A stretch of 64,000 nt of DNA from Escherichia coli (GTDB taxonomy: Bacteria; Pseudomonadota; Gammaproteobacteria; Enterobacterales; Enterobacteriaceae), in the NCBI RefSeq assembly GCF_965641715.1, contig NZ_OZ282453.1; one strand, given 5' to 3'. Positions 34,097 through 36,707 of this stretch are shown piece after piece (the stretch's first letter is position 1; each line of letters starts with the position of its first letter). The position numbers were made by a program, and so were the translations under genes. The notes under the pieces were generated by a model. That model had not been told where the DNA came from. It saw only the letters and a program-made list of their open reading frames with translations, and searched no databases.

Positions 34097-34222
34097 ACAT
34101 AGTTGATTCGGTTAGTTGGGCTTGTACCAACCCCTATCGAATAAACCTCATAGCCACGCTTCATATTTCCCCCTCTCTCATAAACCATTATACCACAAAT
34201 GTTACGAAATTGTTAAAAATAC

Positions 34223-34251
34223 TTGACATTAGTCTTTGAAAATGCTAGTAT
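34223..34251 (+). promoter_or_regulatory. strong sigma-70-like promoter (TTGACA-N17-TAGTAT) preceding the 34300 operon; copy 1 of a duplicated promoter cassette
   Basis: tgttaaaaat-ac-TTGACA-N17-TAGTAT-tgtatata; same architecture recurs at 36212. Confidence 0.6.
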
Positions 34252-34299
34252 TGTATATAAGTTAACAGAGAATTAACAATTATAAGGACTAGCTTATGA

Positions 34300-34857
34300 A
34301 TGAACGACAGAGAATTTAGAGCGATGCTTCAGGCATCGAGACAACGTAACAGATACAACTCCTACAGCTACACAGACACCCCCACCAGCTACGAACTACC
34401 CAAGCTCACCAGAGCAGAACGCAAAGGCCTTGATGAATTAATTCGTAGCATTACGCCACGAGATAGATTTATGCCAACCAGAAAGAGCACGAAGAACACT
34501 ATTAAAAATTATCTGGCTAACTTTGACAGCTACGAACAATTACCAAGTAAGCTTGATGATGTAATTATCGGATTCTGTAGAAGTGAAGGTCACCCGAAAT
34601 ACAACAAAAAACTATTTTATCTTCTAAAGAATCTTGACGAAATTAACTCAGCCACCGTGACAAATCATCTTCAGCGTCAAGCAACCAGACTTAGCCATGA
34701 ATTACCAAGCGATAAATATTGCGCTTTGCTTGCTGTAATGTGCGCAAAGTTAATTGGTGTTGTTGAGCATCATATTGCCGTTGGAAATATTGAGCCAATG
34801 GAAAACGAGCAACCAGATTTCGAGTTTGACCCGTATTTAGTTACAGAGGAATTTTAA
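34300..34857 (+). CDS. hypothetical protein (185 aa), first gene of a four-gene coupled operon
   Basis: ORF with RBS-like aagga upstream; followed by abutting or overlapping ORFs. Confidence 0.5.
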   Translation: MNDREFRAMLQASRQRNRYNSYSYTDTPTSYELPKLTRAERKGLDELIRSITPRDRFMPTRKSTKNTIKNYLANFDSYEQLPSKLDDVIIGFCRSEGHPKYNKKLFYLLKNLDEINSATVTNHLQRQATRLSHELPSDKYCALLAVMCAKLIGVVEHHIAVGNIEPMENEQPDFEFDPYLVTEEF

Positions 34858-35136
34858 ATGAAGAAACACACTTTGACCCGTATTTCAGAAGAAGCCTTTC
34901 ACGAGCTTACCCGAATTAAACAGACAACTAACCTCCCTCATCAAACTGTTATGCAGCTTGCAATTGCTAAAGAGGTTACTGAGTCGGATTTACTGAAATA
35001 TCCAGTCTCTAAAGGTCGTAAGCACATCCGAATTACTCAGGACGCTTTAGATACTTTGAAGGCACTTAACAACTTTAAAATTGATATCGCCCGACTATTG
35101 AGTATTAAGATTCACAAGTTAGCAATGGGGGTTTAA
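34858..35136 (+). CDS. hypothetical protein (92 aa)
   Basis: ORF abutting the preceding stop. Confidence 0.45.
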   Translation: MKKHTLTRISEEAFHELTRIKQTTNLPHQTVMQLAIAKEVTESDLLKYPVSKGRKHIRITQDALDTLKALNNFKIDIARLLSIKIHKLAMGV

Positions 35137-35351
35137 TGCTATGCGTTACCTTTGAATACCACACGGATAAAATGATTCGCTACATCTCCGACCTCCTGAT
35201 TGAAGGAAACGGATTCGGTGACATCCATAACTCAAAAGATATTTTCATTAAAGCCATTGGCCCAAATGAAGTACTGAAAACAGCAGTTAAACCGGAATGG
35301 TTTGAGCGTCACAAGATTGAATTAGGTTATTGGGGTGAGGAGGTTTTATGA
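35136..35351 (+). CDS. hypothetical protein (71 aa)
   Basis: Start overlaps the previous stop. Confidence 0.4.
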   Translation: MLCVTFEYHTDKMIRYISDLLIEGNGFGDIHNSKDIFIKAIGPNEVLKTAVKPEWFERHKIELGYWGEEVL

Positions 35352-35635
35352 AACCTTGGCATGAAGATGTTAGACGATATTTTACAGAACACCTTATCTA
35401 TGATGAATCCAGTGATTCCCTGTGCTGGTCTGATGGAGAGTCAGTCACGATAAACACCGACGACTACGGCAACAAAACATTTAATATAGGCCGATATACT
35501 TTCTACGTGAAATATGTTGTCTGGTTCCTTTATCATGGCTATCAATCCAACAAGCAAATTATCCATCGAAATGGTAACAGAGCCGATACCAGACCAAAAA
35601 ATCTTATGCAAGTCCGAGACTTTAAGAGAAATTAG
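35348..35635 (+). CDS. HNH-endonuclease-like small protein (95 aa)
   Basis: C-terminal IIHRNGNRADTRPKNL resembles the H-x-[DN]-G-N-x-x-[DN]-N-x-x-x-N-L core of phage HNH endonucleases; ATGA overlap with the preceding gene. Confidence 0.45.
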   Translation: MKPWHEDVRRYFTEHLIYDESSDSLCWSDGESVTINTDDYGNKTFNIGRYTFYVKYVVWFLYHGYQSNKQIIHRNGNRADTRPKNLMQVRDFKRN

Positions 35636-35791
35636 AAAAACAGCTTCTCAGACGCTCTCAATCGCATTCTAACGCAAAAAACTATCTTATTTTAGGGTGG
35701 GTAATACCACTGTACAGGCTACCCCTGAAAAAGACTGTTTAGCTCGTTACAGAGCGATTGAGGAGGTCTGGTAAAAAGGAGATTTTAAGAA

Positions 35792-36121
35792 ATGAGAGAA
35801 TTAAACTTCCCACTACAGATTTTTATTGATACCGACACCGCCATGATGATTCAGGCTTTCACTGATGTAGGTGTTAGCATTGACTTTGATAAGTTGTTAG
35901 AGTTAATGACTGATAATGCGGAAAGCATCTCTGACTTTATTCAGTCGGTGGAGTTTAACGAGCCTCGAATGATGCTACCAATTAAAGACAGCAACATGAA
36001 AAGATTGGTTATCGAGCAAACGAACAAATTCAGCGTTAGCCCTGAAAAATATCTCAAGGCGGCTATAGCAATTTTGTACGCTGACAATATTTTGGTGACG
36101 GATTCGAAGGTGGTGCATTAA
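35792..36121 (+). CDS. hypothetical acidic protein (109 aa)
   Basis: ORF with RBS-like aaggag upstream. Confidence 0.45.
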   Translation: MRELNFPLQIFIDTDTAMMIQAFTDVGVSIDFDKLLELMTDNAESISDFIQSVEFNEPRMMLPIKDSNMKRLVIEQTNKFSVSPEKYLKAAIAILYADNILVTDSKVVH

Positions 36122-36211
36122 TGGAATTGGTGATTATCTGTTTTGTATTGATTGGTATGATTGCAGGTGCATCTATTAAAGTATAAATGTTACCAATCTG
36201 TTAAAAATCTG

Positions 36212-36240
36212 TTGACAAATAACCTTGAGCATGACATAAT
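36212..36240 (+). promoter_or_regulatory. second copy of the element promoter cassette (TTGACA-N17-CATAAT), followed by a ~460-nt leader
   Basis: ctgttaaaaat-ctg-TTGACA-N17-CATAAT-tgtatatata; next ORF does not begin until 36708. Confidence 0.6.
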
Positions 36241-36707
36241 TGTATATATATGAGGATAGTCTTCTATCCGAAGTCTATAGGGAGAGCAATTCTCCTTGAA
36301 TTAAAATATTAATCATCTCTACATCAATGATAACTATATTCTGAGTTGGTGAGGTATGTTCTATACCGAACATTCTGAAAGGTGCAATGCTTTTCGTCAT
36401 GGCCTTTCAGTTTAGTCTGAGAGGCTATCTCAAAAAGTGCTTAATCATTCATTCATTGAATCCTTTACAGCTTTGCCCTAATCATGAGTTAGGGCGTTTC
36501 TTTAAGAGTTTTAAGCAGAGCTTTTAAAGAAAGTTTTTCCTGAAACTTCGTTAACGTTATAAAGCAAACCTTCAAAGCCCTTCACAGATTCAATGTTTAG
36601 GGCTTTTCTTAATAGAGCATCTTTAATAAATCGTTAAGTCATCTTCTAAGTGTATTGGCGTTGAAGGTGCTCTGTTAAGAAATAAACCACACTTAGAGGA
36701 AGTTATA

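Follow-up and report, generated by a model that had tools for sequence, protein, structure and literature searches.

A structured, non-coding leader separates the second of two related promoters, P1 and P2, from the operon beyond it in a low-GC integrative island of Escherichia coli. The island lies within the window analysed here, a stretch of 64,000 nucleotides (nt) from contig NZ_OZ282453.1 of RefSeq assembly GCF_965641715.1. The leader (~36247–36707, 461 nt from P2 to the ATG at 36708) is a conserved + strand RNA and represents an undescribed family in a widespread, uncharacterised integrative island. Its terminators, and an anti-Shine–Dalgarno (anti-SD) element complementary to the ribosome-binding site of the first distal gene, suggest with a probability of roughly 65% a cis-acting ‘double lock’, in which transcription attenuation is combined with occlusion of the ribosome-binding site and short RNAs arise as a by-product. 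The original prediction, made from the sequence of this stretch, had proposed two near-identical promoters, the second followed by ~460 nt without a start and by terminator-like hairpins, and had left the choice between a small RNA and a riboregulatory leader of a ‘tape-measure module’. Conserved structure, terminators and the anti-SD element favour a riboregulatory leader of the distal operon; promoters and hairpins had been recognised correctly, but the putative translational lock, an invariant hairpin (H3) and the TGTTA repeats at the promoters had been missed.

The distance from P2 to the start codon was 314–497 nt, and never short, in 37 distinct islands, whose leaders (25 from E. coli, E. 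albertii and an Escherichia sp., plus 12 from IMG/VR contigs) form the basis of the comparisons that follow. Only short open reading frames (ORFs) occur in the leader, their frame and length varying between islands, and a coding explanation was rejected because none is conserved across 25 islands. Folding of the + strand gave −149.7 kcal/mol, compared with −98 ± 5 kcal/mol for shuffles (z = −10), and the − strand −111 kcal/mol (z = −3.9), a difference of ~39 kcal/mol in favour of the + strand, and G.U cells outnumbered A.C cells by 13:0 in hairpin H4 and 11:1 in hairpin H2. The strand asymmetry in folding, together with many G.U and almost no A.C combinations, indicates a + strand RNA rather than a DNA structure. 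No Rfam 15 model matched positions 34000–37000 at gathering thresholds; a permissive search of 36150–36720 returned a best E-value of 0.2, to eukaryotic microRNA and small nucleolar RNA models far under threshold, and a phage genome collection contained no DNA match to the leader.

The leader consists of hairpin modules in series, each present in several alleles and shuffled among islands. From 5′ to 3′ in the window these are:

36254–36269, + strand: optional hairpin GGATAG-TCTT-CTATCC, in a 27–29-nt insertion module found in 8/25 aligned leaders
36278–36298, + strand: H2, a 6–10-bp hairpin with loop GCAAU in this window; 9–10 alleles
36349–36376, + strand: optional hairpin ATGTTC-TATACC-GAACAT, a 28-nt insertion module found in 9/25 aligned leaders
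36377–36395, + strand: H3, GAAAGGU-GCAAU-GCUUUUC, an invariant 19-nt hairpin with the same pentaloop as H2
36399–36428, + strand: H4, a 10–13-bp hairpin; 13 module alleles with 9 distinct stems, −14 to −18 kcal/mol in all alleles
36474–36503, + strand: T1, predicted intrinsic terminator; 8–9-bp stem GCCCTAA/TTAGGGC, then tail GUUUCUUU
36498–36538, + strand: H7, a 15–16-bp A/U-rich hairpin whose 5′ arm is the T1 U-tract, followed by UUUUU
36577–36613, + strand: T2, terminator-like hairpin AAAGCCCU/AGGGCUUU followed by UCUU; loop variable, sometimes with an insert
36605–36682, + strand: H10, a 22–29-bp hairpin of −34 to −43 kcal/mol directly 5′ of the ribosome-binding site; allele types A, B and C
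36642–36653, + strand: anti-SD element UCUUCUAAGUGU, in the apical loop of H10
36689–36710, + strand: Shine–Dalgarno (SD) region ACACUUAGAGGA (36689–36700) and start codon (36708–36710) of the first distal gene, encoding 236 amino acids (aa)

Folded one module at a time, every module folds in every allele, and compensatory changes were seen in H2, H4 and H10. RNAalifold applied to the whole MAFFT alignment recovered 27 pairs only, alternative module alleles being misregistered, and MAFFT placed the 5′ arm of H4 wrongly; instead, modules were folded singly and their pairs counted after registration by hand. Standard pairs filled 99% of cells in H4 (both sides changing in 4/11 pairs; slide controls 31–55%) and 95% in H2 (both sides changing in 5/7 pairs). 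In the main helix of H10, 96% of cells pair, five pairs change on both sides, slide controls gave 42–52%, and the covariation score was reached by 0/500 shuffles. Conservation of structure across homologues had been proposed at the outset as a check, and the outcome was strongly positive: structure is strand-specific, changes are compensatory and a terminator is always present.

H3 is set in variable flanks, yet its 18-nt core, AAGGTGCAATGCTTTTCG, was identical in 37/37 distinct leaders, the base 5′ of the core differing in one. In this window H2 and H3 both have 8-bp stems and GCAAU pentaloops and lie 98 nt apart; no other GCAAT-loop hairpin with a stem of at least 6 bp occurs in the island, and just one more in 128 kb (both strands). 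Among species-representative genomes the H3 18-mer was found in context only in Escherichia, five other matches equalling random expectation, and nothing convincing was found among the island 5′ regions as a target complementary to H3.

T1 was recovered independently by a terminator scan (36474–36496; 9 pairs, 4 of them G-C; loop 5; tail TTTCTTTAAG; ~−11.5 kcal/mol), has the stem and tail of an intrinsic terminator, and is present in 25/37 leaders, preceded by an A/U-rich single-stranded stretch. H7 appears only in leaders with the full T1 module (17/25 aligned leaders) and is vestigial in L012. The second hairpin originally described, AAAGCCCT...AGGGCTTT (36577–36607) followed by TCTT, folds as stated, the scan having passed over T2 only because its loop exceeds 8 nt; both hairpins are thus present, T1 by independent scan and T2 by folding. 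The 3′ arm of T2, TAGGGC, occurs in 37/37 leaders, and short T2 alleles, with a 10-bp stem of ~−19 kcal/mol followed by UUUUU, have the form of intrinsic terminators. In every leader one or more predicted intrinsic terminators (1–3, drawn from T1, H7 and T2) stand between P2 and the first distal gene, the first lying ~230–370 nt past P2 in every island (>200 nt in 37/37). With terminators invariably placed ahead of the next gene, transcripts from P2 must meet them.

Beyond the terminators, the apical loop of H10 is complementary to the SD region of the 236-aa gene. The anti-SD:SD duplex comprises 9–12 bp at −14 to −19 kcal/mol in 23/23 distinct loop/tail combinations, with z-scores of −2.4 to −6.3 against shuffled loops, and RNAalifold chose this pairing unprompted (columns 440–446 with 507–513). 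The matched anti-SD/SD pairs are UCUUCUAAGUGU/ACACUUAGAGGA in type A, CCUCUUCUAAGU/ACUUAGAAGAGG in type B and UUCACCUCU/AGAGGUGAA in type C; since three allele types hold the match with different sequences, this is compensatory change over long range, and the leader has both the complementary upstream element and the compensatory change of an SD-sequestering leader. Judged by its length only, H10 is a candidate substrate of RNase III, all alleles reaching the ~20 or more bp of near-perfect double-stranded RNA that the enzyme acts on.

The pattern TGTTAAAAAT-N2/3-TTGACA-N14-TGNNANNATTGTATATA has exactly two matches in the window, at 34211–34259 (P1) and 36199–36248 (P2), and none in 100 shuffles, and when the P1 region is compared locally with both strands, P2 is its best match other than itself (score 24, background 7.3 ± 2.1). 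Duplication beyond chance is thereby confirmed, although ‘near-identical’ overstated it: the upstream block, −35, TG and the 9-mer past the −10 are held in common, but the 17-bp spacer sequences differ. Scanned against the sigma-70 consensus, P2 scores 11/12 and P1 10/12, and they rank among the three best sites in 30000–42000; in each the spacer is 17 bp long and the −10 is extended by TG. With an AAAAA tract 2–3 bp 5′ of the −35, each has the full set of TTGACA, 17-bp spacing, extended −10 and UP-like A-tract of a sigma-70 promoter; such a tract would also act as a proximal UP element. Both promoters are conserved in related islands, and the P2 cassette is near-invariant in 25 islands. The promoter features are:

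34200–34259, + strand: P1 cassette; −35 TTGACA at 34223–34228, TG at 34243–34244, −10 TAGTAT at 34246–34251, then TTGTATATA
34200–34220, + strand: P1 repeats, TGTTA-N6-TGTTA with the A-tract
34263–34278, − strand: inverted TGTTA-N6-TGTTA pair inside the 42-nt P1 leader, a candidate downstream operator
36188–36248, + strand: P2 cassette; −35 TTGACA at 36212–36217, TG at 36232–36233, −10 CATAAT at 36235–36240, then TTGTATATA
36188–36214, + strand: P2 repeats, three TGTTR repeats in 11-bp phase

Transcription would start near 34258 at P1 and at 36246–36248 at P2; given the former, ~42 nt separate P1 from the ATG at 34300, in agreement with the spacing first reported. Five copies of TGTTR-N6-TGTTR are found in the window, where 0.74 would be expected, and 4/5 of them are at P1 or P2, the inverted pair in the P1 leader included. 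Islands with a different early module have no P1 and carry a third promoter type, in which ATGTTG-N6-ATGTTA-N6-ATGTTA spans the −35, spacer and −10. The TGTTA repeats probably explain the duplication of the promoter cassette.

Other promoter-like sequences were seen in and beyond the island. GTTAAAA-N2/3-TGTTGACAAATAA also heads strong promoters in five unrelated IMG/VR viral contigs (L033, L038, L041, L048 and L049) of G+C 0.34–0.38, whose downstream sequences are quite different; because unrelated low-GC viral contigs have it too, the core promoter design is not unique to the island. Back to back with P1 lies a divergent promoter-like site, TTAACA-N18-TATAAT (34216..34187, − strand; 11/12 with TG), which precedes a 74-aa ORF with a hydrophobic segment (33872–34096, − strand), and some E. 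coli islands have small − strand coding sequences annotated at the matching spot. TTAACAGAGAAAATACATATATA, at 39937–39959, 5′ of the baseplate-like gene, resembles the P1 leader segment TTAACAGAGAATTAACAATTATA (34262–34284) that holds the inverted TGTTA pair, and may be a further operator.

The genes on either side of the leader fall into two proposed operons:

34300–36121, + strand: proximal (‘early’) operon, which P1 would drive; 185-aa ORF1, 92-aa ORF2, a 71-aa ORF, an HNH-like protein of 95 aa and a 109-aa ORF
34858–35136, + strand: ORF2, a predicted tandem ribbon-helix-helix (RHH) protein of 92 aa
36121–36186, + strand: 21-aa hydrophobic peptide ORF, MELVIICFVLIGMIAGASIKV, whose start overlaps the stop of the 109-aa gene (TAATG) and which ends 2 nt before the P2 cassette
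36708–40794, + strand: distal operon, proposed to be gated by the leader; the 236-aa protein, a 71-aa ORF, a 709-aa tape-measure-like protein and a 264-aa phrog_3721 protein

The 21-aa ORF stops 2 nt short of the P2 cassette, so that the P1 operon runs up to P2 with no terminator in between. Versions of this peptide (21–25 aa), with coding-type variation, occur in all aligned related islands, none of them annotated in RefSeq. The AlphaFold2 (AF2) model of ORF2 (pLDDT 90.5, pTM 0.82) has beta-alpha-alpha twice in one chain, an RHH fold; its best Foldseek matches are F TraY, DndE and AvtR (probability 0.9–1.0, TM 0.5–0.6), with weak E-values (0.02–0.1) and identity of 9–14%. Pfam gave no significant match for either the 92-aa or the 236-aa protein. 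ORF2 (92–96 aa) is the sole early protein shared by both island types, and from its model we infer that it is the protein most likely to bind the TGTTA repeats common to P1 and P2, through which the two promoters may be co-regulated. ORF1 belongs to an orphan family, with 22 relatives among 1.8 billion representatives; it has a conserved, arginine-rich N-terminal helix, no Pfam match and, for a moderate AF2 model (pLDDT 73), no fold match. As a candidate antiterminator it was rejected: besides its few relatives and the lack of Pfam or fold matches, islands with the same leader and H3 lack it. In the distal operon the 709-aa ORF has a TIGR02675 tape-measure domain, which upholds the ‘tape-measure module’, although the first gene past the leader encodes the 236-aa protein, which is uncharacterised; the 264-aa phrog_3721 protein is a ‘phage baseplate protein’ in RefSeq.

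In the mechanism proposed, P1 and P2 would be two copies of one strong sigma-70 promoter design within a serine-recombinase integrative island. P1 would drive the proximal operon with almost no leader, and the TraY/AvtR-like ORF2 would bind the TGTTA repeats and co-regulate both promoters, whereas P2 would drive the distal operon through the structured, non-coding + strand leader, acting in cis. Most P2 transcripts would end at T1, H7 or T2, 250–370 nt from their start, short RNAs being the result, and in those that read through, pairing of the SD with the anti-SD of the H10 loop would keep translation silent. Candidates for opening the locks are an RNA-binding antiterminator, island- or phage-encoded, that reads the invariant H3, and RNase III, which by cutting H10 would release the anti-SD. 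The analysis establishes the sequence features together with how far they are conserved, strand-specific, covarying and complementary; that the promoters are active, that transcripts terminate, that translation is repressed and what the trigger may be are predictions from sequence.

Several observations weigh against the double lock. T1 is missing from 12/37 leaders, a third of islands, and the long T2 allele, with a loop of 17 nt (~45 with inserts) and an inner stem, is not a textbook terminator, three U of its tract pairing with an upstream AAA. Slide controls for H2 were high (48–77%), its purine/pyrimidine arms pairing well even when slid. All sequences come from Escherichia and close relatives and are mosaics of few module alleles, so that the covariation reflects a handful of events. 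An anti-SD placed in a loop implies a pseudoknot, which the folding tools used do not handle. As for the trigger, no N, Q or other antiterminator or RNA-binding family was found among the island proteins tested, and no boxA, boxA-like sequences appearing only at three mismatches and at chance frequency (76 found, 66 expected).

Some of the same features would suit a free, trans-acting small RNA (sRNA) of ~200–370 nt as the main product, running from P2 to T1 or T2 and acting on host, phage or island mRNAs, with the link to the downstream operon secondary. A strong promoter is followed by intrinsic terminators, an A/U-rich single-stranded stretch lies 5′ of T1, the 18-nt invariant stretch of H3 amid variable flanks is as expected of a seed or protein-binding site, and prematurely terminated late transcripts have become sRNAs elsewhere (StxS, transcribed from the late promoter of Stx phage; PMC7547250). 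This is nevertheless unlikely: the island 5′ regions offered no convincing target for H3, T1 is dispensable in 12/37 islands, and H10 and the anti-SD, which lie beyond the terminators, are equally conserved, as only a cis role explains. The two readings are compatible, and a short RNA could combine trans-acting and cis-leader roles. That the hairpins work instead as DNA (as a replication origin, or as packaging, transfer or recombination sites), or merely terminate the P1 operon and have nothing to do with P2, is very improbable. Inverted repeats abound in the region, ORF2 is similar to TraY, a relaxosome protein, and T1 and T2 are also the first terminators past the P1 operon; but the stems accept G.T and hardly ever A.C, the + strand folds ~39 kcal/mol better, anti-SD:SD complementarity would be meaningless in DNA, and with P2 >200 nt 5′ of the terminators in 37/37 islands its transcripts meet them.

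Processive antitermination is a possible, if somewhat unlikely, alternative. An N- or Q-like protein from the island or a helper phage would act at H2/H3, or H3 and H4 would form a put-like RNA, and the island would be a satellite whose tail-like operon is on only during infection. The order of strong promoter, conserved hairpins, terminators and structural-type genes is that of lambda late or early units; two GCAAU-pentaloop hairpins with 8-bp stems lie 98 nt apart in the window, with a single other such hairpin in 128 kb, ORF1 has its arginine-rich helix, and the island is found in predicted viral contigs. Yet the island proteins tested include no N, Q or other antiterminator family and boxA is absent, the first transcribed bases vary by insertion, which makes a pause element at a set position improbable, some alleles do not keep the H2 loop, and ORF1 is missing from islands in which H3 is unchanged. 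A broader picture, distinctly unlikely in its entirety, would have the island as a phage satellite or phage-responsive element, its tail-like operon unlocked by a novel type of RNA-directed antitermination or activation when a protein or RNA polymerase reads H3, and the terminated RNA doubling as an immunity or host-directed sRNA.

Among known systems, the lambdoid late unit under Q antitermination (PR′, then 6S RNA or StxS, then tR′) shows how a short terminated RNA by-product can become an sRNA (PMC7547250). Like PR′-tR′, the leader has a strong promoter, one or more terminators within a few hundred nt and structural-type genes beyond; unlike it, it is longer (314–497 nt) and modular, adds a putative translational lock, and shows no sequence or Rfam relation. 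Nor were a Q gene, a Q-binding element or a conserved pause element of the Q unit found, the first 30 nt differing by the 27–29-nt insertion. The lambda PL-nutL-N leader is long and untranslated, with an RNA-regulator hairpin and an RNase III-sensitive stem by the ribosome-binding site that limits translation until processed. The island leader is similar in following a strong promoter at length, with a small hairpin and a large stem beside the ribosome-binding site, and differs in having no boxA, no N-like protein found, and terminators inside the leader, before the first gene. Of an N/nut system it does have GCAAU pentaloops, in H2 and H3, and an arginine-rich helix, in ORF1, but ORF1 is missing where H3 is kept. 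In satellite phage P4 (PLE leader, CI RNA), a constitutively initiated transcript is controlled by premature termination in a structured leader. Shared with P4 immunity would be a mobile element with a structured leader and, as proposed here, premature termination; unlike it, the leader matches neither the C4 antisense RNA (RF01695) nor any other Rfam model, and internal, mutually complementary repeats of the P4 seqA/B/C kind were not found in it. The put RNA of HK022 brings about protein-independent antitermination through two adjacent stem-loops, specific features of both stems being needed. H3 and H4 are likewise adjacent conserved stem-loops, ~55 nt in total, between a strong promoter and terminators, but the sequence of H4 varies freely and H3 is invariant, so the resemblance is architectural only. 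Tandem RHH regulators such as F TraY and AvtR bind phased direct repeats, much as the ORF2 model is a tandem RHH and the promoters carry TGTTA repeats in 11-bp phase. On these comparisons the leader resembles PR′-tR′ combined with an N-leader-type ribosome-site region, and, sharing no defining sequence or motif with either, lies outside those families.

The promoter, terminators and anti-SD, as the three parts of the proposed switch, give experimental access to the timing and purpose of tape-measure-like and baseplate-like gene expression in the island, and the switch is relevant to the question of what the island is: a satellite, a defence element or a prophage in decay. The element occurs in ~9% of complete E. 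coli genomes, and a 0.3–0.5-kb stretch of it is unannotated. The leader could enter RNA family databases and is a natural example of an RNA made of exchangeable hairpin modules with the fold kept across alleles, useful for the study of leader evolution.

The island spans ~11.5 kb (~31000–42470), with G+C of ~0.35–0.45 compared with ~0.55 in its flanks, and ends in a serine recombinase gene (547 aa, − strand). A rutG-like permease, a KGG-repeat protein and wrbA flank it, a setting of enterobacterial chromosome. Nucleotide similarity to E. coli islands begins at ~31017. Its gene set is present in 470–515 of 5426 complete E. coli genomes, most often with yecE as the insertion site. Among the carriers are clinical sequence-type (ST) lineages, some strains of O157:H7 and E. 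coli WCHEC020031 (NZ_CP033401, island at 764–777 kb); there are protein relatives in Salmonella and Shigella, and the island was also recovered from predicted viral contigs (IMG/VR). RefSeq labels in the island comprise hypothetical proteins, an HNH endonuclease, a ‘tape measure protein’ and a ‘phage baseplate protein’, and in complete E. coli genomes the leader stretch after P2 has no annotation whatever. O157:H7 is variable for the island: E32511 has it in yecE, and Sakai has an intact yecE (Sakai 2553462–2554280). Identity with the Sakai element SpLE2, guessed from a size of 13.4 kb in E32511, was dropped on account of that intact gene; since the island is absent from Sakai at that site, the Sakai Hfq-CRAC (cross-linking and analysis of cDNA) sRNA tables are uninformative for the leader RNA. 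A literature search on yecE islands gave nothing relevant, and PADLOC identified in the island only an orphan methylase.

That methylase is a phage-type N6-adenine DNA methyltransferase with a C-terminal helix-turn-helix (32597–33265, + strand; phrog_111; PADLOC orphan MTase), found in some islands only. The left arm of the island (31017–31775 and 32164–32597) is ~82% identical to E. coli islands and has no ORF >60 aa; the AP2/HNH gene that E. coli islands carry between these two blocks is absent from the island in the window. ATAGTTGATTCGGTTAGTT occurs in the left arm at 31330 and 31938 and recurs at 34099. A 63-nt inverted repeat, 73% complementary, pairs 32056–32118 in the left arm with 35610–35672 just past the HNH gene; E. 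coli islands have a second HNH/AP2 gene in the opposite orientation, of which this repeat is probably what remains.

All nine copies in the window of the 8-mer CTTCACAG/CTGTGAAG lie within the island (31168–42059), as do 11/11 copies of TCACAGA. Copies of the 8-mer, which may be a protein-binding motif, occur within the loop of T2, in the two D1 repeats and in the left arm, which is ORF-less. A 94-nt sequence repeated in tandem (33575–33657 and 33669–33751; 90% identical), located between the methylase gene and P1, is kept in other islands; its unit consists of CTGTGAAG followed by a hairpin whose arms vary compensatorily among islands, and each unit also contains a weak leftward promoter-like site. 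Antisense pairing of the D1 tandem repeat (TCTGTGAAGGG) with the T2 5′ arm (CCCTTCACAGA) was considered and rejected, the repeat being unchanged where T2 lacks TCACAGA. Elsewhere in the window, Rfam matches at gathering threshold were Ysr251 (10670–10863, + strand), antisense to an ORF at 10665–11729, naRNA4 (47721–47799, + strand) and the cspA thermoregulator (58482–58904, − strand).

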